60,396 bases of DNA from Candidatus Levybacteria bacterium RIFCSPHIGHO2_01_FULL_36_15 (GCA_001782015.1 MFNJ01000047.1:13912-74307), one strand, 5' to 3'; counted from the first letter of the stretch, positions 1 to 55,822 are shown. The notes: generated from the letters alone by a model not told the origin. Program-made: numbers and translations.

Positions 1-418
1 TGTTGAGGGTGCAGTGATAAATCCGGGAGTCTATAGTCTTAAAACAGGCTCCCGAATTCAGGACGGCCTTATAGCTGCAGGAGGATTATCGCAGGAGGCT
101 GACCGAGCCTATATTGAAAAGAATATTAATCTTGCAACAGCCCTTACCGACGGCCAAAAAATTTATATTCCCAAGCTGTCGGATGCGCAAAAAACGGGCG
201 TGGTTGATGGTGTATCTATGGACAGCAGTTTTTCCTCAAAAATAAATATAAATAGCGCTTCTACCAGTGATCTTGACAGTCTTTCAGGGATAGGTGTGGT
301 AACAGCCCAAAAAATTATAGACGCAAGGCCATACAACTCAATAGATGATCTTCTTAACCGTAAAATCGTGAGCAGTAAAGTATTTGAGCAGATTAAAGAT
401 AAAATCAGTGTATATTAA
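1..418 (+). CDS. comEA: ComEA-like DNA-binding competence protein (SLBB + helix-hairpin-helix), 5' end outside the window
   Basis: NPGVYSL...AAGG (SLBB) and KININSAS..DLDSLSGIG..TAQKII (HhH) motifs; the frame is open to the window edge; lies upstream of comEC. Confidence 0.9.
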   Translation, partial: VEGAVINPGVYSLKTGSRIQDGLIAAGGLSQEADRAYIEKNINLATALTDGQKIYIPKLSDAQKTGVVDGVSMDSSFSSKININSASTSDLDSLSGIGVVTAQKIIDARPYNSIDDLLNRKIVSSKVFEQIKDKISVY

Positions 419-23482: not shown

Positions 23483-26122
23483 TCATTTTGCAGTTACATT
23501 AACAGTATATGTTGCCAAATTGCCAGCAAGATCATAAGCTTTGGCAGAAAGTGTATAATTAGCTCCCTTTTTGGCAGGTACAAACCAAGTACAAGTAAAG
23601 GGTGTAGTCGTATCGCTACATTTAAGTGTACTGTTAACATAAAATGCTACTTTAGCAACACCTATATTATCTGTGGCTGTGGCTGTAATAGTGGTTGTTT
23701 TATTTCTTGCAACTATACCACCATTTACTGGATAAGTAATAGTGACTATTGGAGGAGTAAGATCAGGTGTGGAAGTTGGTGTCGGCGTAGGAGGAACAGG
23801 CGTAGGAGTGGGGGTTGAAGTTGGTGTCGGCGTAGGAGTGGCTGTAGACCCCAATATTTGGAAATTATCAATAAACCACCCCTCATAATTATTATTATAC
23901 TTATCCACTGTGTTGAAATCAAATTCAATTTTAATATCTTTTCCATCATAGGCTGAGAGGTCTATGGTTTCTTCTTTAAAAACTCCATTGGTGATCATTG
24001 GATAAAGTAAAGTCTCCAGATTCACTATGCCACGATAATAAATTTGTACCCTGGCTATATCCCACAAGTAAGGATCAGGTTCTGTAGATAAGGAATATCT
24101 AAAAACAAGATGCGTGTTCTGGATACCAGTCAGATTGATACTCGGAGAAACTAAAGTCCCAGCGCTTCCAAATCCATTATCATAGTTGCCAGTTTGCTCA
24201 TTTCCATAATACCAAGAAGTTATAGGGCTAACAGATTTTCTTAGGCTCTGATGCCAAATGACATTTTCTTCACCAGGACTTTTAAATACCGTCCAACCAT
24301 TAATACCATTCTCCATATTATCGCTAAATATGACAATTGGATTAGTGGTTGTGGCAACTACCACATTTGAGATGGCTGAGGCATTGCCTGCATTATCCAA
24401 AACTTTCATAGCAAGATAATAAGTAGTGTTTGGAAAAAGCCCTGCTAATTTAAAGGTTTGAGTTTGACCAGAAGCCAGTGGTATTGGAACATTAACGGCT
24501 TGAGATACTGAGTTAAAGTTATTTTCATCAATAGGCACAGTCGAATATCGCAGATCATAACGAGTTGCTTGACCAACTAATCCGTCATCTCCTACAGTTG
24601 TCCAAGTTAATTTCACATAATTAAAATCAATCGAGACTGCAGCTAAATCAGTGATAGCTGAAGGCGGGACTTTGTCGTTATCAAAAAAATTGTAGATATT
24701 AAGTCTACCATTGGTAACAGTTTTTCCCTGCAAAGCAATAACCGTATCAGAAAAATTCATGATCTTATTTTTTATCTCAGAATGTGATAGTTGGGGCGAA
24801 AAGCTCCAAAGAAGAACCGCTGTTCCTGAGACATGCGGTGTGGCCATTGAAGTCCCATTTAAATAGCGATAACCAGAAGGATCGCATAATTTGCAAGCGC
24901 CTTTAGGCACTGTAGAATAAATATTCACGCCAGGCGCACCCAGGTCAACTGTTGTCAATCCATAATTAGAAAAGCTTGCCAATTGATCTTTATAGTCAGT
25001 CGCGGCTACAGAAATAATATTAGGCAAATCATAAGAAGAGGGATACATGGGAAGTAAATCATTGTCTGAAGAATTATTACCCGCAGCCGCAATAAAAAGA
25101 TTACCAGCATTATTAGCAACTGTTATAGCTTCATATAAAGCTTGGGAATTAGCCCCTCCACCCCAGCTATTACTAGTAATTTTAAAACCCATTTGGTTGG
25201 CATATAAAATTGCTTTGACAGCATTGTCAGCAGTCCCTGAACCATTGGCGTCTAAAAATTTAATTGCGGCAATCTTGGCTTTCCAGTTTACCCCTACTAC
25301 TCCAAGTCCGTTGTTTCCTACCGCACCAATAGTTCCTGCCACATGAGTGCCATGACCATGATCATCAAAAGGGTCAGGATCGTTATTGACAAAATCATAA
25401 CCATAGATGTCATCTATGAATCCATTATTATCATCGTCAACGCCAGCCGAACCACTCTGTTCAGCTGTATTCACCCATAAATTATCCTTCAAATCCTCAT
25501 GAGTGTAATCAATGCCAGTATCAATTATGCCAACAACCAAGTTACTATCATGAATTGTGCTCCAAGCCTCAGGTGCATCAATATCAGCATCCGTTGTACC
25601 ACCATTTTGGCCATTATTATTTAATCCCCAAAGATTGGTAAAGCTTGGATCATTGGGAACTGATAAGGTTGTAACTATATAATTTAGCTCAGCGTATTCA
25701 ACGTTTTCATCTTTGTTTAAGGCTCTAAGCAAATTAGTCAGCTCTTGATCCAGGACTTCGGCTTTATATAATCGATCTAAACCCACTTTTTCTATCTGCT
25801 TTTGAATTCCACTCTTTAATTTATGCTTTGCTAAAATTTTATTTAGGAATTTTATGTTATATTCTTTAGAGAATTTCTCATCAGGGAAAAAGTCTTTTTT
25901 GAATTTGATAATGATTTCTCCTGGCACATGTTTGTTGATTTTAACTCCATTCTGTTGTCTTGGTTTTTGAGGTGTGGCTTCTACTCTTTGTGTTATCTTT
26001 TGTTTTTGTCTGACAAGAAGGGTTGTGATAGAAAGAGAAATAATAAGAATAATTAAAGTAGTCAAATTTAATAACTTTATAATAGGAATTCTCTGAATAA
26101 ATTCTTTTATTCTTTTCTTCAC
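23483..26122 (-). CDS. Membrane-anchored S8 subtilase with FN3, beta-sandwich, Pro/Thr linker and C-terminal Ig-like domain
   Basis: Catalytic triad VGIIDTG, HGHGTHVAG, GTSMATPHV; N-terminal TM; GTG start. Confidence 0.93.
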   Translation of the reverse strand: MKKRIKEFIQRIPIIKLLNLTTLIILIISLSITTLLVRQKQKITQRVEATPQKPRQQNGVKINKHVPGEIIIKFKKDFFPDEKFSKEYNIKFLNKILAKHKLKSGIQKQIEKVGLDRLYKAEVLDQELTNLLRALNKDENVEYAELNYIVTTLSVPNDPSFTNLWGLNNNGQNGGTTDADIDAPEAWSTIHDSNLVVGIIDTGIDYTHEDLKDNLWVNTAEQSGSAGVDDDNNGFIDDIYGYDFVNNDPDPFDDHGHGTHVAGTIGAVGNNGLGVVGVNWKAKIAAIKFLDANGSGTADNAVKAILYANQMGFKITSNSWGGGANSQALYEAITVANNAGNLFIAAAGNNSSDNDLLPMYPSSYDLPNIISVAATDYKDQLASFSNYGLTTVDLGAPGVNIYSTVPKGACKLCDPSGYRYLNGTSMATPHVSGTAVLLWSFSPQLSHSEIKNKIMNFSDTVIALQGKTVTNGRLNIYNFFDNDKVPPSAITDLAAVSIDFNYVKLTWTTVGDDGLVGQATRYDLRYSTVPIDENNFNSVSQAVNVPIPLASGQTQTFKLAGLFPNTTYYLAMKVLDNAGNASAISNVVVATTTNPIVIFSDNMENGINGWTVFKSPGEENVIWHQSLRKSVSPITSWYYGNEQTGNYDNGFGSAGTLVSPSINLTGIQNTHLVFRYSLSTEPDPYLWDIARVQIYYRGIVNLETLLYPMITNGVFKEETIDLSAYDGKDIKIEFDFNTVDKYNNNYEGWFIDNFQILGSTATPTPTPTSTPTPTPVPPTPTPTSTPDLTPPIVTITYPVNGGIVARNKTTTITATATDNIGVAKVAFYVNSTLKCSDTTTPFTCTWFVPAKKGANYTLSAKAYDLAGNLATYTVNVTAK

Positions 26123-46900: not shown

Positions 46901-47030
46901 CTTTGGTATCGCCCCAAGAAACAAATCTGAAAGCAGCATGAGCATTAGCCGGCATGAAACTGAGAAAGATTACAGCAGTCAAAAGAGACAATAGAATCTT
47001 GAATTGTGACGCGATTATTTTATTCTTCAT
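43902..47030 (-). CDS. Secreted multidomain enzyme: metallophosphoesterase, CBM6/35-like module, dockerin, pectate lyase (PL1-like)
   Basis: WGDT, TGDL, RGNHD, FHGHEH; YEAENAVLSG; GDANSDGYINLTD/GDFNCSGKTNGID; SFPGAEGFG..TLGGRGG, FDHVSASWSIDE, RSP. Confidence 0.88.
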   Translation of the reverse strand: MKNKIIASQFKILLSLLTAVIFLSFMPANAHAAFRFVSWGDTKGGTSILKSLSAQVKALSVQPVFTIYTGDLQSDGFCKAGTLGCATPTIEDWTAALNGGTNNGTIYKTFIIRGNHDDHLAGSAGNWANYFNFLNTAATVGARNYTTLSTNLTYSFDYDNARFIGVDVPGDSKLITSAQIAFIDQRLTDAEQNHPEIIHAFVFFHGPMYYVANHTSSVAPAALLNMLNKHPVFTASFHGHEHLEAWVHMDSSRRSEITHPFEQFITGSAGVLQSAGCTASRNPDYCLVAYGFSAIDINGENMTVSFYKQGVTTPQWTRTFTKGSVSTPTPTVKPSGTPTSTPTITPTRIPTFTPTPTPSQNTGLYEAENAVLSGAVFSTSHPGYTGNGEVNYTAKSDGSVTWTNVTAPSAGNYILTFRYVLGAADRPLKLSVNNNIINSGLKFPSTGTWTNWSTLSYTAQLNAGVNNVQLTTIGYEGPDLDHLKQSQAVYATPTSTPITPTITLTPTTTPTSCMSNMGDANSDGYINLTDYNIWLSNYNTQTNNGPGGGDFNCSGKTNGIDYAIWLSNYGTTPTTPIPTILTPTPTTPTATSTPTSTPTVTPQPTSIPTLPPTSSGLKSFPGAEGFGANTLGGRGGRVIEVTNLNDTGTGSLRAAITASGPRTVVFKVAGIINLSSDLSIGNPYITIAGQSAPGGGITLKGGALIVKTNDVIIRHIRIRLGDMAADKDTVYLGGASNVIFDHVSASWSIDETFSAADSKDVSIQWSIISEPLNNAGHVDGEHGFCSLIRGNTNVSVHHNLYAHCKRRSPQLSDKGSNQPKVQVINNVMYDYFDSGTRVVAGNTYYSASVLRYYDIINNKYIIKDINPAEIYLASDMILSKLYIKGNIGPQRPNNTLDEWALVGNDSRYSRSQLEASAPFAPTGVTTYDADTSYEIVLNQAGATLPQRDVVDQRVVSEVRTKTGQIIDCVTGCTKSAPGGWPTIASGTPYTDSDYDGMADNWEVANFGNTSRGSASNSSSDYDNDGYTDLEEYLNNTDPNVKN

Positions 47031-47544
47031 CTTCCTCCTCATTTTCTATCTGTGCGATCATCGGATAAATATCCGCGCTGATCTTTGTGTAAAATTGTTT
47101 GTCATCTCTTATGAGAGACATGCTTAATTTTAAGTTTCCTTTTTGAGCATAATACTCTTGAATAGTGGAACTATTAGTATCCGCAGGCCTGACCTGAATA
47201 ATCCATCCTGCCGGATCTAGTTGATTTGCGTACCACCGAGAAATTTCCTGAAGGGTAGCATCAGATTTCCAAGTGGCCAGATACTTGATTTGTTGGTTTA
47301 TCTGTACTGTTGAAGAATCCAATAAAATTGCGTTAGGATAAAGGGGTATTTGAGGAAAGTCCTTAACCAGTTTTACTTCATGTGACACTAGTTGTTGATT
47401 AAAATTAGTCTGGGGCTTAACAAAGAATAGTAATAGAAGGATTATTGCGACTAATGCCAAGAATACAATTGGAGTAACATTTTTTTGGGGAGCAGGTATA
47501 GGGTTCTTATTTATAGCCTGTTCTTTTGTTATATCTTCTTCCAT
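47020..47544 (-). CDS. Single-TM hypothetical protein, overlapping the start of the lyase gene
   Basis: TM at aa ~25-42; DFPQIPLYPNA...WY..QL...GW. Confidence 0.75.
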   Translation of the reverse strand: MEEDITKEQAINKNPIPAPQKNVTPIVFLALVAIILLLLFFVKPQTNFNQQLVSHEVKLVKDFPQIPLYPNAILLDSSTVQINQQIKYLATWKSDATLQEISRWYANQLDPAGWIIQVRPADTNSSTIQEYYAQKGNLKLSMSLIRDDKQFYTKISADIYPMIAQIENEEEDEE

Positions 47545-47774
47545 GCTAGTTTTATAATGTCTTGTTTTTTTGAATAAAAAAACGTGCTAATTTATTTTTA
47601 TTGATAATTACTTATTTTGTCAATAGCCAAGATAAGCAATAAACGTTAATAGGATTGTCATATTGTCTAAAATAGACATGCGCCTTTTAACGCGTTTATG
47701 TTATTATTTGTTGTAATAAGAGAGTTAGACTAGGTTCGGCGAGATTGACTTAAAGGCTTTATTTTATAATGCCA

Positions 47775-48545
47775 CTATTTTAAAAATACAAGGAAAAATA
47801 TGATTGCCGCAATAATTCTATATATACCAAAAGGTATAAATGTATATCTTTTTATATAGTAAAGCATCCATTTAATGACTGCCAGGGCTACAATAAATGA
47901 AACTACAAAACCAAAGATAAGTATTTCAATTTGTGAAAAAGAAAAAGAGTGAGCACTTTTTGCAAGGTCCAGGCCGGTTGCGGCCAGCATGGTTGGAATA
48001 GCAAGGATAAAAGAAAATTCAACAGCAGATGATCTGGTGAGGCCGGTAAAAAGACCTCCAATTATAGTGGCAGCCGCGCGGGAGACTCCGGGAATTATGG
48101 AAAATGACTGAAAAAGTCCAATGAAAAAAGCATTCTTATAAGATAAGGTACTTAAGTCTTTTTCCTGGGTTTTTTTCTTAAAGTGAAGTTCAAAAAAGAT
48201 TAACAATATGCCTCCCACTAGTAATGACATTACTGTAACAAGCGAATTTCCTATCAGATAATTTTTGATTACTTTATAAAGAACAAGGCCAATTATTCCC
48301 GTAGGAATGAATGCTATGATTGTTTTTTTAAGCAACTCTTTATTTTTTAATATCATTTCAAGATATAGTGCGACAACGGCCAGAATTGCCCCTGATTGAA
48401 TAATAATTTCAAAACTCTTTACAAAATCAGTTTCCGCAATCTTCAGAATCGCGGAGGCAAGCGTCATGTGTCCGGTTGAGGATATGGGAAGAAATTCAGT
48501 TAGTCCTTCAATGACTGATAAGATAAAGGCTTGAGATAAATTCAT
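47775..48545 (-). CDS. uppP: Undecaprenyl-diphosphate phosphatase
   Basis: IEGLTEFLPISSTGH, IPGVSRAAATI, EFSFILAIP. Confidence 0.96.
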   Translation of the reverse strand: MNLSQAFILSVIEGLTEFLPISSTGHMTLASAILKIAETDFVKSFEIIIQSGAILAVVALYLEMILKNKELLKKTIIAFIPTGIIGLVLYKVIKNYLIGNSLVTVMSLLVGGILLIFFELHFKKKTQEKDLSTLSYKNAFFIGLFQSFSIIPGVSRAAATIIGGLFTGLTRSSAVEFSFILAIPTMLAATGLDLAKSAHSFSFSQIEILIFGFVVSFIVALAVIKWMLYYIKRYTFIPFGIYRIIAAIIFFLVFLK

Positions 48546-48606
48546 GTTTTATTATTTTAACATATTTCAAGATCAAAAATAAAAATTCAAAAAGCAAAAA
48601 CTAGAA

Positions 48607-48701
48607 GTTATTTCAAAACCTCCGTTTCTTGTCATTCTGAACTTGTTTCAGAATCTCAGAAGATGCTGAAATGAATTCAGCATGACAGGTATTGAAATAG
48701 G
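48607..48701. repeat. Nested palindromic element (GTCATTCTGAA...TTCAGCATGAC inside an outer IR, flanked by heptamer arrays)
   Basis: Inner 48631-48686 matches 438-493; outer tatttcaaaacct/aggtattgaaata. Confidence 0.85.
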
Positions 48702-48789
48702 CACTAGTTAAAAATTCCAAGATTTGAGTTTTGAGCTTTACTCACTATAAGATCTTGACTTTCATTTTTCACGGTAATATTATATATCT

Positions 48790-49030
48790 GCTCTTGAGTG
48801 TGTAAGGAAAGCAGCATGTTTTCCTCTACACTTTTCTCGACCTTTGGGGTAGTGCCCCGATTATCGGGGACAACGAGACAGGTTTTGATACTCCGTGGAG
48901 TATTAAGCAGTCTTCCCAATTTGAATTCGGGGAATCACTGTTTTCTGTACCACTTAAGGGCAGAATTTATTAAATCTATAACTAAAACAGGCAGATGAGC
49001 AAGCTTTAATTACAAAGCTCAGGGGGTATT
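48790..49030 (+). ncRNA. Candidate structured non-coding RNA, family not recognised
   Basis: Promoter TTGACT(48755)-17-TATTAT(48778); five or more consecutive hairpins with G-U pairs; 5' ctcttgag can pair with 3' ctcagggg; T-rich end. Confidence 0.45.
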
Positions 49031-49155
49031 TTTATTTAAATTCCACTTAAAATATACTTTTCGACCCCCATAAACTTAAATCCAGTTTTTATTCCGGTAC
49101 TTTCTTGCAAAATTTGTTATAATTTTGTCTAGAAGTTCAAATTCCTAAATATTAA

Positions 49156-49386
49156 GCCGTCTTAGCTCAGTGGCCCCGAAAAAGCTTACTTCAGCTTCCG
49201 TTGAAGAGCGCTTAACGGGGTAAATGGAGTAGCAGTTTTGCTTGGGCACGTTAATGCCGCCCTAGCTCAATGGTAGAGCAGCTGTTTTGTAAACAGCAGG
49301 TTCACGGTTCGAATCCGTGGGGCGGCTCTCATAGCCCATTTTACGTGCTAAACAGCAGGTCGTCCCGCTTAGCGGGACAGACGGCT
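49156..49386 (+). pseudogene. Decayed outer tRNA-Thr(TGT), split at the anticodon (5' half 49156-49240, 3' half 49349-49386)
   Basis: Acceptor gccgtct/agacggc perfect; D stem gctc/gagt; anticodon loop tttg|taa; T stem gtccc/gggac with a non-canonical loop; 47-nt hairpin inserted in the D loop. Confidence 0.75.
49256..49327 (+). tRNA. tRNA-Thr(TGT)
   Basis: Acceptor gccgccc/gggcggc, anticodon arm gctgt-ttTGTaa-acagc, T-arm cacgg-ttcgaat-ccgtg. Confidence 0.96.
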
Positions 49387-49425
49387 CAAAAGTTGGCAGG
49401 TGCCTGGTCTTCGATCAAATCGGAA

Positions 49426-51192
49426 TTATTTAAGAAAGGTCGTAGATGCCCGTAGCTCCGATTTAAGCGGAGGTAAAGAGTACATAAATCCTTTACTTGT
49501 TAGATATTTAATTATTGTGTTTACGCAGGCGGCGGGCCTAAGTTTACTGGTATCAATTTTTATTTCCGGGTTTTCCGGCGCTTCATAAGGATCGTCAATG
49601 CCTGTTACAGCCTTGGCGAGTCCCATTTTGCCTTTTTTGTATAATCCTTTTATGTCCCGTTTTTGGCAAGTCGCAAGCGGAGTAGAAACAAATATTTCAA
49701 TGTATATCCCGTTTTTTTTAATCAATCTTCTGTTTTTTTCACGCGCGGCTTTATAAGGTGCAACAGCGGCGCACACGGCAATTCCGCCATGCTTTGTGAT
49801 TTCATTTGCCACAAAACCAATACGGGTAATGTTTATATCCCTGTCTTCTTTTGAAAAAGACAGCCCTTTTGACAAGTTCTGTCTTACAATATCACCGTCA
49901 AGAAAAGTAACTTTTTTGTCCTGTATCTCAAGAAGTTTAAAATAAAGCATTGTTGCAATCGTTGATTTTCCAGCACTCGGAAGGCCGGTAAAAAATATGG
50001 TAAGCCCATCCTTTTTCTGTTTTGGGGCGCCTTTTTTTAGCTCTTCTATTACTTCGGGAAACGAAAACCATTCGGGGATTTGTTCATTATTCAACAGTCT
50101 TTTCCTGAACTCAGTTCCGGAAATGTTTTTTATAGTATGCCCTTTTTTTAAGGCCTCCTGCGGTAAGTATTTTTTTTCATTTTCCACGTAAACCATTTCA
50201 GAAAAAGGGACAATTTTTATACCTATTTCTTTTTCCTGCTGCAGCGCGAGGTTCTGGGCATCATAAGGGGCGTAGTAGGGGATACCTTTAGAATCTTTTC
50301 CTGGTCCGGCATGGTCGCGCCCCACAATAAAATGCGTACAGCCGTAATTTTTTCTGATTATCGCGTGTAAAACTGCCTCTCTTGGTCCTGCCATTCTCAT
50401 AGCCAGGGGAAGAAGACTGAGTCTGGCAAAATTTTTTGCATATTTTCTGTGGAACTTTATGTAACTTCTGACTCTGGTTATGTAGTCTATGTCTCCGTCT
50501 TTTGTAACGCCAACAGTTGGGTGAATCAGGACTTTTGCGCCATAGTCTTTGGCTGCTTTTTTTATCATCGCGTGGTGCGCTTTATGTATTGGGTTTCTGG
50601 TTTGGAACCCGATTATTTTTTTCCATTTATTTTTCTTAAACCAGGTTTGGAGCTGACTAGGCGTGATGCGGTACTTATTAAAATCATATCTTTCAATGGG
50701 GCTTATGCCTTGAACTTTTCCGCCGATATAATAGTTTCCGACTTCATTAATGAGATAATTTACCCCAAAATGATACTCGTCAGAAGTTCCATAAACAAAT
50801 TTTGCCTCCTTTTGCTTATCCGGTTTATAAATTGATGAGACAGATAAAATCGCGAGCGGTTTTCCGTACTCGTCACATAAAACTATTTCTTCTCCAATTT
50901 TATAATTTTCTGACTGACTAACATCAAAAACTATCGGAATAGGCCAAAGCATTCCGTTGGCAAGTTTCATTTTTGAAACTACGGACTTGTAATCTTTTTC
51001 ATCCATAAAACCATCAAGCGGAGAAAAACCGCCATTTAGCAGCAGTTCAAGATCGCAAAGTTGTCTGGGATTCAGATTGACTCGCGGGAGGCTTAAAGCT
51101 TTTTTTTGTAATAATATCTGAGTTTTTTTATCACTGACAATTAAATTTTTGAGCTTGCCGCCATAAGCTTTGAATTTAAAATCTTTTGACAT
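49426..51192 (-). CDS. sat: Bifunctional sulfate adenylyltransferase / adenylylsulfate kinase (Sat-CysC)
   Basis: GGFSPLDGFM, FQTRNPIHKAH, MRMAGPREA, FIVGRDHAG; kinase FTGLPSAGKST, LDGD.VR, TGIDDPYEAP. Confidence 0.95.
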   Translation of the reverse strand: MSKDFKFKAYGGKLKNLIVSDKKTQILLQKKALSLPRVNLNPRQLCDLELLLNGGFSPLDGFMDEKDYKSVVSKMKLANGMLWPIPIVFDVSQSENYKIGEEIVLCDEYGKPLAILSVSSIYKPDKQKEAKFVYGTSDEYHFGVNYLINEVGNYYIGGKVQGISPIERYDFNKYRITPSQLQTWFKKNKWKKIIGFQTRNPIHKAHHAMIKKAAKDYGAKVLIHPTVGVTKDGDIDYITRVRSYIKFHRKYAKNFARLSLLPLAMRMAGPREAVLHAIIRKNYGCTHFIVGRDHAGPGKDSKGIPYYAPYDAQNLALQQEKEIGIKIVPFSEMVYVENEKKYLPQEALKKGHTIKNISGTEFRKRLLNNEQIPEWFSFPEVIEELKKGAPKQKKDGLTIFFTGLPSAGKSTIATMLYFKLLEIQDKKVTFLDGDIVRQNLSKGLSFSKEDRDINITRIGFVANEITKHGGIAVCAAVAPYKAAREKNRRLIKKNGIYIEIFVSTPLATCQKRDIKGLYKKGKMGLAKAVTGIDDPYEAPENPEIKIDTSKLRPAACVNTIIKYLTSKGFMYSLPPLKSELRASTTFLK

Positions 51193-51324
51193 AGGTTTGT
51201 ACCTTGATTGTACTTAGAATATACATTTTTTAAAAAATGTCAATAGAAAAGATTAATGATTGTTCAGCATAATTGGATAAGAGTTTAGTTTGAATTTTAG
51301 CTTAGAACAATATACAATCCCCAC

Positions 51325-51510
51325 ATGACTAAAACAAAAGAGGGTTGTTCAGGTTTCCCTGAAGGATATGATTCTAATCCAAATCACATAAAAATCGTGA
51401 AAAGATCACGCTGGCAGTTTTGTTGTTTTGTCAGAAGTTTTTATCTGAGATTCATGAAATCATCTATGCCATTCTGCGCTTTCAATTTACCCCAAAATTT
51501 TGTAAAATAA
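51325..51510 (+). CDS. Possible small protein
   Basis: 61-aa ORF with ATG 5 nt after TACAAT; no motif. Confidence 0.3.
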   Translation: MTKTKEGCSGFPEGYDSNPNHIKIVKRSRWQFCCFVRSFYLRFMKSSMPFCAFNLPQNFVK

Positions 51511-51523
51511 AGCATAGAAATTT

Positions 51524-51608
51524 GCTGCGGTGCCGGAGTGGTCAATCGGAACAGACTGTAAATCTGTCGCCCGTTCGGGCTACGTAGGTTCGAATCCTGC
51601 CCGCAGCA
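51524..51608 (+). tRNA. tRNA-Tyr(GTA)
   Basis: Acceptor gctgcgg/ccgcagc, anticodon arm acaga-ctGTAaa-tctgt, long variable arm, ggttcgaatcc. Confidence 0.96.
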
Positions 51609-51706
51609 CAAATTTCAAACGAAATCGCCCTTCAGTCTTTCCAACGTTTAATCCGCGCAATAGGCTACATTTGGTAAAAGGTTAGACCCTATAGTATAAT
51701 ACCCAG

Positions 51707-52878
51707 ATGAGCGGAAAAGAGAGGAAATTCTATTGTTCTGAGGCAGGCCAAATTAAGCCGGCAGAATACGGAACTGTTCTTTCTGCAGATCAGCATTACG
51801 CGGACTTCAGGCTTGAGGCAGAAAGAGCAGGGAAAGGCGAGTTGGTATTTGCCCAAACTATGGCTTTTGGAACTCCGGGCAGGGAGAATGAGTTTTGGTA
51901 GATGATTTTGCTGTTGAAAGTATGTATGAGGTTTTTGCCGCGGCTCCCAAAGATGGACCCAAAAGATACCGCATAGATTGTTATACTACTCACATGACGG
52001 GCAATGGGGAACCGATTGAGTTGTTAAAACTTTTCCCCTGGTCGGCTAAAAAAATGATTGAGCTGCAAAAAGACCAAGAGGAGTTGTTTAATAGATTTCG
52101 CGGTCTGGGGGTAAAACTTGAATTTACTAATCCTCCTAAAGGTCTTGGGAAATACGTGCCGGTATTTGGCAGAAACCATTTAAAAAATTCGGGCGTTGGT
52201 GAACGAGTGTTTTACGTGAGAGGTTTTAATGATGATGGATTAACAGCGGGAAGCGTGGATTTTGCAGTGAAGTTTACAGGAGAAGCAGCAGCCAGATTAA
52301 AAGCAGGTTTTGAGAGTATTGATACAGATGAGGGAAATAGCGATTATGAAGTAGAAATAGATCAGCAAACACGATTAATTGTTGATAGGGGCGTGCCGGG
52401 ACAATCGATGATTTATGATATTCTTCTTGAAAACATGCAGCAGTCTTTATCCAGTATAAAAGGTATGTCTGCTCTTGTACCTGATGGCAGAGGGGCAAAA
52501 GCATTAGCCGCAGCACAAACAAGAGGAAGCAGCGTTGAAGTATTTGTTTCTCCAGCAATTCAATCTAATCCGGCACATCCGTTCAGTTTTGGCAATATGC
52601 TATGGATGGCTGAAAAAGCAAATTATTTTAACATGCAAAGGAACGGAGTCAGTTTTCCGGTATTTCGTAATCAAATCCGCGGCGCGCATGGCAAATGTTG
52701 GATTTTTGATGGTAAAACCGCGATTTTTGGTACTCATAATGCTTCTGAAAAAGGTGTTAAGGCGGGAACTTGCGAGGCGGCAATTATAACTACAAATCAA
52801 AAAATTATTCAAGGCTTGCAAAATGTATTTAGCCAAACAAAACTTGAATCATATCCGGATATAAAAGGGGTTATTTAG
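51707..52878 (+). pseudogene. Phospholipase D / cardiolipin-synthase-like gene split by a one-base frameshift near 51893
   Basis: HKD-type motifs RNHLKNSGVG and AHGKCWIFDG...GTHN; the 64-aa upstream ORF joins the 327-aa ORF if one T is added to gagttttgg. Confidence 0.7.
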
Positions 52879-53157
52879 GCATCAAACATAGAATATACTT
52901 CTTGCAGTTGAAATTGCAACCTGCCTCGCCGGTCCGCTTCACCAATCTCGCGTTTAGGCGGGCTGAATCGAGACGAGCAAGGCGGGTCAGTATAACAAGG
53001 TACAGTACTGTACCTTGTATAACTCGATCTTGCCTGATCCGCCTTTGGCGAGATCAAGTAAGAAAGGTATAAATTACCCAACACTAGAGTATTTTTGATT
53101 TCTTCTATGTTGATTTTGGAAGTATTCTATTCTACTATAGATAAAGATCTACCAATA

Positions 53158-53778
53158 ATGAAAGACGATCCAAGGTTAAAAGAGCAATTGCAATTATTAT
53201 ATTCATCAGGTTATTCAATGTCTGAAATTGCAGCAAAATTTTTGTGTTCTATTCACAAAGTAGTTTATTGGATGGAAAAATATAAAATAAAAAGGAGAAC
53301 TAGAAGTCAAGCTGCATATCTTAAACAAAATCCGAACGGAGATCCATTCAAAATAAAGATAAGACTTAATAGAAATGATTTGATATCTTATGGTTTAGGT
53401 CTGGGAATATACATGGGAGAGGGCGAGAAAGTTTCTAAAAGCGCTATTAGAGTGGCTAATACAGATCCTAAAATTATTAAACTATTTATTAAATTTTTAC
53501 TTAATATTTGCAATGTAGAAAGAAATAAGCTGTCATACAGTATTGTTTGTTTTAATGATAATAATATCACAAAAGTGGTAGAGTATTGGTCAAAGATACT
53601 TGAGATACCTCAGGAAAAATTTGGTAAAATAGTGCAAATACCAACTCAGGGTAAAGGAATATATAAGAAAAAATCAGAATTTGGTGTTTGTACGGTAACT
53701 TTTTGTAATATGAAACTTAAATCATGGATTATGAGAGAGATTGAAAAGATGAAAAATTATGCTGGTGAATTTAATTAA
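53158..53778 (+). CDS. HTH + LAGLIDADG-like protein next to a tRNA
   Basis: N-terminal LYSSGYSMSEIA HTH; GLGIYMGEGEK...ANTDPKIIKLFIKFL, YWSKIL.IP, GVCTV; ends 10 nt before tRNA-Thr. Confidence 0.7.
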   Translation: MKDDPRLKEQLQLLYSSGYSMSEIAAKFLCSIHKVVYWMEKYKIKRRTRSQAAYLKQNPNGDPFKIKIRLNRNDLISYGLGLGIYMGEGEKVSKSAIRVANTDPKIIKLFIKFLLNICNVERNKLSYSIVCFNDNNITKVVEYWSKILEIPQEKFGKIVQIPTQGKGIYKKKSEFGVCTVTFCNMKLKSWIMREIEKMKNYAGEFN

Positions 53779-53788
53779 CGGGTTACAT

Positions 53789-53859
53789 GCCGACATAGCT
53801 TAGTGGTAAAGCAAGTCATTGGTAATGACTAGACATGAGTTCGATTCTCATTGTCGGCT
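53789..53859 (+). tRNA. tRNA-Thr(GGT)
   Basis: Acceptor gccgaca/tgtcggc, anticodon arm agtca-ttGGTaa-tgact, T-arm atgag-ttcgatt-ctcat. Confidence 0.95.
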
Positions 53860-53865
53860 CCGAAC

Positions 53866-53886
53866 TGGTCGTCTAAAGACGACCAT
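53866..53886. terminator. Hairpin immediately after tRNA-Thr(GGT)
   Basis: tggtcgtc-taaa-gacgacca followed by an A run (a U-tract on the minus strand). Confidence 0.45.
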
Positions 53887-54100
53887 AAAAAACGCAAAAA
53901 TTTTAAAGAACTTTTCTTTTCATAAAAATTCAAATGGCCGTTCTGGTGTAGTCAAACCCTTACGGATCTGTCCAAAGCGGCCATTAAAAAACCGTAAGGC
54001 CGTTTGACTACAAAAATAATGTATCAATTATTAAGAAAATTTGCAAGCATAAAATTAGAGCGTTTGCAGTTTGTTCTTAAATTTGAAATACTGTATGTAT

Positions 54101-55822
54101 ATGGAAGTAGAAAATACCGACCAAAATGAATTGAAATCTCAAAATTCTGTAGGCGATCAGTCCTTTCGTAAAAATATTCTTAACCAAAAAGGTAATTTTT
54201 TAATTGTTGTCGGGATAGTCTTTGTTATTCTTATAGCAGGGGCAATATATTATTTTGCTTTTTTTAAACAAGATAAAAGTCCCTTAACAAATAATTCTTA
54301 TACAAACACCTCACAATATAAAAGTGGTAATATTGAAACTTCAAAACGCACCTTATATAAAAACGGTCAGCCATATGAAGTATTAGAGGAGAATAGTAAA
54401 AGAAATTCTGATGGCTCCTTAGAAACTATAGTTACTAGTAATAATCAAAAACTTAGCCACCATTTGTATACAAAAGATTTTATCTTGGGATTAAGTAATG
54501 GTATTTTAAATCTGCAACAATTAAAGTCAGGAACAAAGCAAGTAGTTAATTACCTTACAACTGGCGAGAATATCCTTGTGTATGTAAACAAAACTCCCAA
54601 TCTTCAAAAAACTACAACAACCTTAAGTGGTAAGAAAACCACCGTATATACAATAGGTGGTAAAAAGACTACTTCGTTTGAACTGATAAGATCAGTATTT
54701 GCTCAGAGTGATGATAGTTCACTTGTAAAAATCTATGTCGATGAATCCACGGGTGTTTTGAAAAAAGTTGAACGAATACCTTTAGGTGGGATTCAACCAC
54801 AAGAAGTTATTGAGTATTCAGAAGGTCCATTTTTACCACCTTTACCAATTACTACTCTGCCACAAGGTACACCTGGCCAATCTCCTAGCATTACCCCTGT
54901 ACCTATAACTGAGCAGAACCCTCCTACTTTTCAGCCTGAAGATATAGTTAACCAACTTCCTCAGTTAGCCTTAGATGATCAATTAAAACTAATTGAAGAG
55001 AAACTTAAAAAAGACTTAGAGGCTCAAGGTAGTCAATTGCCTGAAGGTCCTAAGAAACCACCTACTTTAGTTTCTTTCAAAGAAATTGCAGCGGAGACAA
55101 AAGAAATCAAAGCTGTGAGTATTCAGCCAGCCGTAGTACCAGATGGAGCTATTTATTTGAACCCATTATCAATTATACCAACTCCTTCAGGTTACAACAG
55201 TCCAATAATGTTACTTAGTTCCACGGTTTTTAACCAACAGGCTAGAGTTGATAAAGCTCTTCAGGAAAATGGAGTCTTTAATAATGAACAATTTGCAAAA
55301 AGTAATGTTAAAGTAAGAATAGATGGTAATGAGTTAAACAATGACGGAATTGGCTTAGGCCCAACACTTAATGGGTCTACAAACTCTTCTTGGACAGTTA
55401 GCTTGCTTATTCCAAAGGGTTTATCGCCCGGTTATCACACAATTGAGATATTCATGGTTGATTCTTGGTATTTATCTCCAAATATTTTGGTAACTTTACC
55501 AAGACCAGATGAAAAAGTTGTAGAGTTAGAGCTTTTTATAAATCCACCTCCTCTAGCTACTAAATTACCGAATAATCAAGGCTACAGAGTAGTTTTAAAA
55601 GGTAAAAACTTCATCAAACCTTTTACAGTTTCTCTTGATAATACAGTTTTGGATGATGAGGCAGTTGAAGTTAATGGACACGAGGAACTGATTTTAACCA
55701 TTCCATCAGATATTCCTTCTCCGTCTAAAGGTCCAGCTTATGATGTAACCATTACAAAAGATGAGCAAAAAGCTTTTCGTCCCTCATTATTACTTCTTGG
55801 TGGTCCTCCACCACCATTATAA
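54101..55822 (+). CDS. Single-TM surface protein with a C-terminal IPT/TIG-like domain
   Basis: NQKGN + TM; Pro-rich linker; VVLKGKNF...ELILTIPS...YDVTIT. Confidence 0.75.
   Translation: MEVENTDQNELKSQNSVGDQSFRKNILNQKGNFLIVVGIVFVILIAGAIYYFAFFKQDKSPLTNNSYTNTSQYKSGNIETSKRTLYKNGQPYEVLEENSKRNSDGSLETIVTSNNQKLSHHLYTKDFILGLSNGILNLQQLKSGTKQVVNYLTTGENILVYVNKTPNLQKTTTTLSGKKTTVYTIGGKKTTSFELIRSVFAQSDDSSLVKIYVDESTGVLKKVERIPLGGIQPQEVIEYSEGPFLPPLPITTLPQGTPGQSPSITPVPITEQNPPTFQPEDIVNQLPQLALDDQLKLIEEKLKKDLEAQGSQLPEGPKKPPTLVSFKEIAAETKEIKAVSIQPAVVPDGAIYLNPLSIIPTPSGYNSPIMLLSSTVFNQQARVDKALQENGVFNNEQFAKSNVKVRIDGNELNNDGIGLGPTLNGSTNSSWTVSLLIPKGLSPGYHTIEIFMVDSWYLSPNILVTLPRPDEKVVELELFINPPPLATKLPNNQGYRVVLKGKNFIKPFTVSLDNTVLDDEAVEVNGHEELILTIPSDIPSPSKGPAYDVTITKDEQKAFRPSLLLLGGPPPPL

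Follow-up and report, generated by a model that had tools for sequence, protein, structure and literature searches.

How does an intact transfer RNA (tRNA) gene come to lie inside the anticodon of another tRNA gene of the same specificity, and is the surrounding gene still in use or has it been overwritten? The question is raised by a locus in Candidatus Levybacteria bacterium RIFCSPHIGHO2_01_FULL_36_15. The window analysed here, by which we mean the whole stretch of 60,396 nucleotides (nt) (GCA_001782015.1 MFNJ01000047.1:13912-74307), carries at positions 49156-49386, counted from its first letter, a complete tRNA-Thr(UGU) flanked by the two halves of a second tRNA-Thr(UGU). Few genes are as conserved as those for tRNAs and, to our knowledge, interruptions of bacterial tRNA genes are rare and are due to group I introns. 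The evidence assembled below suggests that the locus is probably a stack of tRNA-Thr(UGU) genes that arose at the DNA level, a newly arrived gene having invaded the resident one and taken its place.

Anatomy of the nested tRNA-Thr(UGU) locus

The nest is composed of the following parts.

49156-49240, plus strand: 5' half of the outer tRNA-Thr(UGU), gccgtct allele, which stops after anticodon position 35
49174-49220, plus strand: GC-clamped hairpin of 47 nt (CCCCG...CGGGG) in the D loop, after G18-G19 of the outer copy
49241-49255, plus strand: 5' flank of the insert, 15 nt, which pairs with the 3' flank
49256-49327, plus strand: inner working tRNA-Thr(UGU), called by ARAGORN and by the Rfam tRNA model (71.6 bits, E 1.4e-14)
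49328-49348, plus strand: 3' flank of the insert, in which ATTTTAC resembles the TTTTAC of the 3' arms of cassettes in relatives (by eye, unscored)
49349-49386, plus strand: 3' half of the outer tRNA-Thr(UGU), which begins at anticodon position 36
49362-49378, plus strand: palindrome GTCCCGC-TTA-GCGGGAC in the place of the T arm (GTCCC-GCTTAGC-GGGAC)

The insert (49241-49348) is thus 108 nt long, made up of the 15-nt flank, the inner tRNA and a flank of 20/21 nt, and it sits between anticodon positions 35 and 36 of the outer tRNA-Thr(UGU). The outer 5' half retains the acceptor strand GCCGTCT, the D stem GCTC/GAGT, the anticodon-stem strand GCAGT and the loop segment TTTG; the 3' half continues with TAA, ACAGC, AGGTC, the altered T arm, the acceptor strand AGACGGC (49379-49385) and a discriminator T. 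Removal of the insert rebuilds a 7-nt UGU loop, TTTGTAA. The outer acceptor strands pair at 7/7 positions, the outer anticodon stem has one A-A mismatch, and the ends of the insert can pair as GCACGT/ACGTGC; the minimum-energy fold favours an alternative helix, TGGGC/GCCCA. In all these respects, from the coordinates to the pairing of the insert ends, the locus is as an earlier note on this DNA, made from the sequence alone, had described it.

The 231-nt locus as a whole has a predicted fold of -105.5 kcal/mol (z -6.6), a value equalled by 0/200 shuffles. On the native sequence ARAGORN and Rfam call the inner tRNA alone, and ARAGORN in intron mode returns the same gene only, plus a spurious overlap at the relaxed threshold. 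This inner gene is the only one for tRNA-Thr(UGU) among the 47 tRNAs of the assembly. The 12-mer TAAACAGCAGGT is present in two copies in the window, at 49290 and 49349 (shuffle expectation 0.00), and is common to the 3' sides of the inner and outer copies.

A nest of this kind could in principle be produced by an assembly that joined reads of two strains, as the earlier note had recognized in naming misassembly as a possible refutation. Contigs of three other metagenome runs match 48900-49272/49290 with zero differences and contigs of two runs match from 49328/49334 onward, again with zero differences. All of these contigs end inside the inner tRNA, a repeat in metagenomes, such that none spans the complete nest, which is what an artefact might look like. 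Both junctions are nonetheless reproduced without differences, and the same architecture is found in many independent genomes, leaving an artefact with almost no probability. Both nest junctions are real and not the product of misassembly, and the observation is confirmed.

The outer copy and the case for splicing

A pattern built on the outer 3' half located, in metagenome contig L119, an uninterrupted canonical tRNA-Thr(UGU) with the gccgtct/agacggc acceptor. This is the undivided allele that the earlier note had proposed looking for, and the note's reading of the outer halves as one former allele is upheld. The outer copy is identical to the L119 allele at 18/18 positions over 49156-49173, at 12/14 over 49227-49240 and at 28/38 over 49349-49386; within the 3' half, all 10 differences fall in the 17-nt T arm and 0 at the other 21 positions. 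These differences indicate that the outer copy was disabled by the D-loop hairpin, a block swap of the T arm and two substitutions. The hairpin, the T-arm change and the mismatch that had been taken as signs of decay all stand, but the decay was not gradual, consisting of two hairpin-type events and two substitutions.

When the insert is removed, ARAGORN finds 0 tRNAs in the spliced outer sequence at the default and relaxed (70%) thresholds, with or without the D hairpin. The spliced copy lacks the T-loop consensus and carries the 47-nt insertion in its D loop. From the sequence, it is a well-supported conclusion that the outer copy would be a retired gene and not an intron-bearing tRNA.

Both of its hairpin changes have counterparts elsewhere. 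In genome G022 the palindrome likewise stands in for the T arm of three old tRNA-Thr 3' halves, and its general form, TCCCGC-NNN-GCGGGA, occurs in 43/245 genomes of the order, with 0 control hits and at most 10 copies per genome. A hairpin of the same CCCCG...CGGGG type, followed by TAAAT, lies in the D loop of a retired tRNA-Ala on contig C31 of the same genome. As separate observations, the TCCCGC-NNN-GCGGGA palindrome (L025-L053 and window 49362-49378) often tips longer hairpins without a nearby tRNA, and old tRNA-Gln copies from two families, at L092 (G031) and L107 (G022), have a two-hairpin insertion of the D arm in common. At L107 such old tRNA-Gln copies stand in tandem, downstream of a GIY-YIG open reading frame (ORF) and a fresh tRNA-Gln.

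The principal alternative that had been offered for this locus was an intron-like arrangement, in which the inner tRNA would be released at the RNA level and the exons joined to yield a second tRNA-Thr(UGU). The perfectly restored 7-nt loop, the 7/7 acceptor and the helix formed by the insert ends are all points in favour of an RNA intron. The product of splicing, as described above, is not recognized as a tRNA, and the enzymes for such splicing were not found: searches for EndA (PF01974) and RtcB (PF01139) gave 0 matches in the genome (completeness 91.7%), with controls positive in 4 and 10/14 genomes. A group I intron follows a U at the end of the 5' exon and has G as its own last nucleotide. 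Here the outer 5' exon ends in G and the insert in C, the size of 108 nt is likewise unlike that of a group I intron, and no group I model is among the 13 Rfam matches listed (E up to 10) for 47000-55000, all of which are tRNAs. The bulge-helix-bulge motif comprises two 3-nt bulges that hold the splice sites, with a 4-base-pair helix between them. At this locus both junctions abut one end of the closing helix of the insert, where an internal loop has 4 nt on one strand and 3 nt on the other, and the geometry is not that of a bulge-helix-bulge.

Recurrence across the order and an older layer at the locus

A 92-nt query from genome G031, comprising the end of a 5' half and the start of its insert, matches 48/245 genomes of the order. 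The long matches number 27, in 27 genomes, and each is followed by a complete tRNA (22 Thr, 5 Cys); split halves flanking same-isotype tRNAs, which the earlier note had suggested looking for, are found in 27 genomes of the order. The insert in these relatives is a cassette with a full length of 160-176 nt (19/22 distinct arms with a placeable 3' end) that starts with YCCCAG, ends with CTGGGA and enters tRNA-Thr after position 35 and tRNA-Cys after position 34. Its 5' arm, 64-76 nt in length, consists of a hairpin that has TCCC/GGGA as its closing pairs and a -10-like sequence in its loop, followed by GGGATCCCGTAAA, and its 3' arm ends in ...TTTTACTGGGA, which pairs with the 5' arm. Compensatory changes affect 11/20 predicted pairs of the arm hairpin. 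The loop keeps TG-n-TA-n-AAT with variable n positions, a pattern of conservation that would resemble an extended -10 promoter element. By eye, the stretches that flank the inner tRNA in the cassettes of relatives also pair together. The cassette arms at L117 have an extra insertion before GGGATCCC.

Layering is likewise a recurrent property. Nests at L022, L061, L065 and L117 are two or three layers deep. In a search of 41 relatives, the tRNA-Thr(GGU) and tRNA-Thr(CGU) of G022 proved to be flanked by halves of older copies, T-arm palindrome included, with anticodon stems that match those of the inner gene. The gccgtct allele is the outer copy at L056, L118 and L120 too, where it is split by a full 163-nt cassette, and at L119 an older nest has it as its live inner gene; a scan of species genomes for the outer allele gave one record, Candidatus Levybacteria (L118). 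The genome under study contains two further ORF-less nests with a 35/36 junction, in tRNA-Ala(UGC) (C31, ~24683-24758, minus strand) and tRNA-Pro(UGG) (C48, ~172-244, minus strand), and altogether this junction recurs in Thr, Ala, Pro and Leu genes. Outside the order, the cassette core pattern matched 3/401 genomes of a phylum-wide sample, at chance level compared with 5 control hits, so the cassette family seems to be confined to the order. Viral contigs yielded one match, GC-rich and without an ARAGORN tRNA, which was taken as chance. Rfam at gathering scores found only ordinary tRNAs at 13 loci of relatives. As an observation on gene order, L117 (G218:C7:19300-21300, minus strand) has a tRNA-Thr(UGU) nest, a tRNA-Tyr and a GIY-YIG ORF, followed by a three-layer tRNA-Thr(GGU) nest.

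The relatives bear on the splicing question in both directions. At least nine spliced outer copies in their loci are still recognized as the same tRNA, a lower bound in that exact loop letters were required, and the cassette arm is a covarying hairpin, which also speaks for an intron. Other outer copies are decayed, made of halves of mixed alleles (L058), reduced to one half (L012, L008) or heavily deleted (L065). Outer and inner copies always share their anticodon, in the window as in the relatives, and for this reason the outer copy, once spliced, would add nothing. The presence of a promoter inside the cassette also counts against splicing, because an intron would need none. Taken together, these arguments make an RNA-level intron very unlikely; that splicing is disfavoured and that the nest would have formed at the DNA level is a well-supported conclusion.

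The same set of outer copies informs a different possibility, namely that the outer halves have been exapted as a leader and trailer, kept as a structured frame that aids the processing or stability of the inner tRNA. Outside the hairpin events only 2/53 compared positions of the window's outer copy differ from the intact allele, and its acceptor strands still pair throughout. The predicted fold of all 231 nt is also much better than that of shuffles, and retired copies in several genomes likewise show hairpin changes at the D and T positions. Near-identity may, however, merely reflect a recent event, and such a frame is dispensable, since outer halves have been lost on one side, mismatched or heavily deleted at the four loci of relatives just named. 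We regard this explanation as unlikely.

Two further routes to two halves and a whole gene can be weighed against the recurrence. The first is that an integrase-borne element, such as a phage or an integrative element, had inserted itself into the tRNA gene and that the locus is what remained once nearly all of it had been deleted. tRNA genes often serve as sites of integration, and partial tRNA copies are left by such events (PMC9897764); in G036 a complete tRNA is followed by a 3' half alone. The present locus has both halves and no repeat at its junctions, the 108-nt insert has chance reading frames only and no remnant of an integrase, and dozens of loci with the same small size and architecture are not expected from independent deletions; this origin is highly unlikely. 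The second is a tandem duplication of tRNA-Thr followed by two chance deletions, leaving one whole gene between a 5' and a 3' half. The clustering of tRNA-Thr genes here and the tandem old copies at the tRNA-Gln locus of G022 lend it some colour. It would need two deletions, both ending exactly at 35/36, and the same junction in Thr, Ala, Pro and Leu genes, and it leaves aside the mutual pairing of the insert flanks and the cassette arm upstream, making it highly improbable.

Other mechanisms were compared with the junctions and set aside. These are a tyrosine or serine recombinase crossover, for which there is no common core at the junctions; IS200/IS605-like single-strand transposition, whose end structures have no match here; integron-like cassettes; and removal of the RNase III type with the ends left unjoined, after which the anticodon loop would stay broken. 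In each case the mechanism was taken as generally understood.

If the locus is a DNA-level stack, the outer gene may itself have been delivered. A covariance model, R1, built from 22 cassette arms of relatives, and a comparison with L119 define two features on either side of the outer gene.

49092-49155, plus strand: decayed 5' arm of an older full-length cassette (R1 covariance model)
49387-49408, plus strand: possible remnant of the 3' arm of the older cassette, GGCAG...CTGG as after the same allele in L119 (by eye, weak)

The R1 match (49092-49158) extends over the full length of the model and reaches the first base of the outer gene, with 34.7 bits and an E-value of 1.3e-6; the next best match in the 60-kilobase (kb) window has an E-value of 1.5. 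In the loop of the 49092-49155 hairpin module is an extended -10-like element, TTTGTTATAAT, at 49113-49123, and this arm probably supplies the promoter for the whole nest. Its presence indicates that the outer gene was itself delivered by a cassette and, by extension, that the locus has seen at least two generations. The local alignment of 49387-49408 with L119 is not significant (z ~1.3, 50/500 shuffles equal).

The 108-nt insert belongs to a short form. Its 15-nt 5' flank is without the conserved 5' arm, which belongs to the older layer, and in its 3' flank ATTTTAC-GTGC pairs with the GCAC-GT of the 5' flank, its terminal motif being unlike the ...TTTTACTGGGA of the cassettes. Flanks that close into a helix in this manner are also found in mini-inserts at C31, C48, L022 and L061, and the sequences of the closing stems differ among them.

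Proposed origin, candidate nucleases and known systems

The following sequence of events would account for the locus. A cassette with the promoter-bearing hairpin arm (49092-49155) would have brought a canonical gccgtct tRNA-Thr(UGU). A mini-cassette of 108 nt, carrying a gccgccc tRNA-Thr(UGU) in a short helix, would then have entered that gene between positions 35 and 36. The inner gene would now be the working one, probably transcribed from the promoter of the older cassette, and its tRNA would probably be freed by the ordinary enzymes of tRNA end processing, with the helix of the insert flanks keeping the inner fold apart from the outer halves. The outer gene, thus retired, may have been disabled further by insertion of the D-loop hairpin and exchange of its T arm for the palindrome.

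For the spread of such nests we propose a homing-like process. We infer an enzymatic cut at the anticodon: a nuclease acting in trans would cut the anticodon loop, or a site close to it, in a tRNA gene that is still uninterrupted, and the break would be repaired by copying of a nested allele whose outer halves provide the homology arms. Layering would follow because the delivered tRNA is a fresh target, the next to be cut. Homing of this type would explain the reuse of one outer allele with different inserts and, possibly, the regular damage to the D and T loops of retired copies.

The ORFs that neighbour the nest are as follows.

49426-51192, minus strand: ATP sulfurylase / APS kinase fusion of 588 amino acids (aa) with a PUA-like domain, between the tRNA-Thr nest and tRNA-Tyr
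51895-52878, plus strand: PLD-like (PLDc_2) ORF, between tRNA-Tyr and tRNA-Thr(GGU)
53095-53778, plus strand: ORF of 227 aa with weak helix-turn-helix matches only, which ends 11 nt before tRNA-Thr(GGU)

The earlier note had pointed to a LAGLIDADG-like ORF in this cluster. Pfam LAGLIDADG_1 and _3 have no match on the contig of the window; the ORFs of the cluster are PLDc_2 or weak helix-turn-helix matches, and one of 583 aa has no domain match. Of the allele replacement that the note had envisaged, the dropping of a complete new copy into the anticodon loop holds and recurs in the order, but the link to a LAGLIDADG ORF does not. No fragments of an old tRNA-Thr(GGU) or tRNA-Tyr were found at 50.5-55 kb. 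The 227-aa ORF occupies the same position before a tRNA as nuclease ORFs do at other tRNA genes, and a GC-rich inverted repeat, CCTGCCTCGCC...GGCGGG (window ~52930-53060), resembles the CCTGCC...GGCAGG hairpins in retired tRNAs of relatives. In several relatives (L008, L054) tRNA-Thr and tRNA-Tyr are adjacent, unlike in the window, where the fusion gene lies between them.

Elsewhere in the genome, small GIY-YIG ORFs are closely associated with tRNA genes. There are 17 of these ORFs (74-149 aa), and 7/17 lie no more than 65 nt upstream of a tRNA on the same strand, compared with 0.03 expected (binomial 8e-16). The tRNA-linked GIY-YIG ORFs are:

C56:55654-55965
C55:5195-5508
C39:27140-27457
C54:6698-7018
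C34:3828-4183
C29:8139-8467
C21:20729-21076

These seven stand 39-62 nt upstream of tRNA-Gln, Gly, Asn, Trp, Leu, Pro and Lys. Of these ORFs, 6/7 are themselves preceded by an old 5' fragment of the tRNA in question; the fragments break off in the anticodon loop (Leu, Trp) or before it, and they usually bear a GC-clamped hairpin in the D region. Among five relatives, 16/28 small GIY-YIG ORFs are at most 60 nt upstream of a same-strand tRNA; four of the 16 have an old 5' fragment and five an exact copy of the tRNA 3' end 82-106 nt downstream. In G218 one such ORF is directly upstream of the three-layer Thr(GGU) nest, and when ORFs around 33 nested loci were clustered, small GIY-YIG ORFs were the sole recurrent neighbour, at four loci. 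A second tRNA-linked nuclease family consists of LAGLIDADG_3 ORFs at C12:4564-4791 (minus strand, 351-aa frame) and C34:4530-4763 (minus strand, 244-aa frame), just upstream of tRNA-Ser c[4418,4505] and tRNA-Cys c[4325,4398]. The small GIY-YIG genes are the best candidates for driving the nuclease step, an assignment that would be possible but is more doubtful than firm.

A bolder version of the proposal, which we put forward tentatively, is that the nests are self-propagating tRNA replacement cassettes that hold no protein gene. Each would consist of a spare tRNA equipped with a promoter, would be driven in trans by GIY-YIG nucleases, would accumulate in stacks like Russian dolls and would leave behind old copies disarmed by palindromes. 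A host could not lose such a cassette, because it would have broken an essential tRNA gene exactly in its anticodon and delivered the spare, itself the next target. As part of this version, the D- and T-loop hairpins of retired copies may be scars of nuclease attack or a protection from it.

A number of results weigh against origin by invasion and replacement or against the manner of spread proposed for it. No donor of the 108-nt insert was found among the 41 relatives, and neither alternative joints nor an empty site were seen at the locus in four metagenome runs (reads at 85% likeness). Alignments for halves of a still older host gene outside 49092-49408 were no better than shuffles. Since the closing stems of the mini-inserts differ, they offer no shared terminal repeat for an enzyme to recognize. 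No nuclease or recombinase gene was found in or beside the insert and no GIY-YIG match on the contig of the window, and the small GIY-YIG proteins have little beyond the catalytic domain and fail to reach the cut-off for the family of group I intron endonucleases. Finally, the regularity of the hairpin changes and the retention of the outer acceptor at 7/7 may mean that the outer parts retain some role. Invasion and replacement at the DNA level remains the probable explanation.

If this is true, the nests represent a new route of tRNA gene turnover, in which whole genes are repeatedly overwritten from within, and a new kind of minimal selfish element whose sole cargo is the essential gene it destroys. 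Through their tight tRNA linkage, the abundant orphan GIY-YIG genes and some LAGLIDADG genes in genomes of the candidate phyla radiation would also gain a testable role. There is a consequence for annotation as well: tRNA finders see the innermost copy only, and where retired halves lie, split tRNAs, introns or attachment (att) sites may wrongly be called. In the full-text literature, to which supplementary tables could add relevant data, we found no published account of bacterial tRNA genes that lie one inside another; the recurring, layer-upon-layer overwriting of tRNA genes in these ultra-small groundwater bacteria is apparently undescribed.

Several known systems share elements with the nests. 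Group I introns interrupt bacterial tRNA genes in the anticodon loop, and the present insert is unlike them in being too small, in having the wrong junction nucleotides and in containing a tRNA instead of a ribozyme. In the tRNA-dependent lysogeny of actinobacteriophages, a host tRNA gene is destroyed and a spare supplied, and the agent, in the sections of the account drawn on here, is a whole prophage with a tyrosine integrase and a short common core (PMC10865867). The element described here, unlike that prophage, is 108-176 nt long with a tRNA as its only gene, lies inside the anticodon and is stacked in layers. Duplications of att sites leave fragments of a tRNA gene beside a complete copy, which, going by the relevant part of the source, means one partial copy across kilobases (PMC9897764); here both halves flank a tiny insert and no repeat is present at the junction.

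The disrupted tRNA genes of archaea come closer, and the portion of that study used here presents for the Caldiarchaeum tRNA-Thr(GGU) a model of disruption by a mobile element (PMC3293823). As in the nests, a tRNA-Thr is broken by inserted DNA, with a fragment displaced by a mobile element. That portion also places archaeal insertions at positions outside the anticodon loop, attributes the mending of the genes to a splicing endonuclease and a ligase, neither of which was found in the present genome, and does not describe a complete tRNA inside the interruption (PMC3293823).

The closest parallel for the proposed nuclease step is SegB of phage T4. According to the parts of the report considered here, SegB is a free-standing GIY-YIG homing endonuclease whose gene belongs to the tRNA cluster of T4; it recognizes a T-arm motif of tRNA genes and drives the inheritance of itself and the neighbouring tRNA genes (PMC2330249). 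SegB differs in replacing a region without nested halves, whereas the insert in the window is without a nuclease gene, and the predicted GIY-YIG ORFs of the present genome are much shorter. Like SegB, these small ORFs are tightly linked to tRNA genes, and the retired copies are altered at the T arm.

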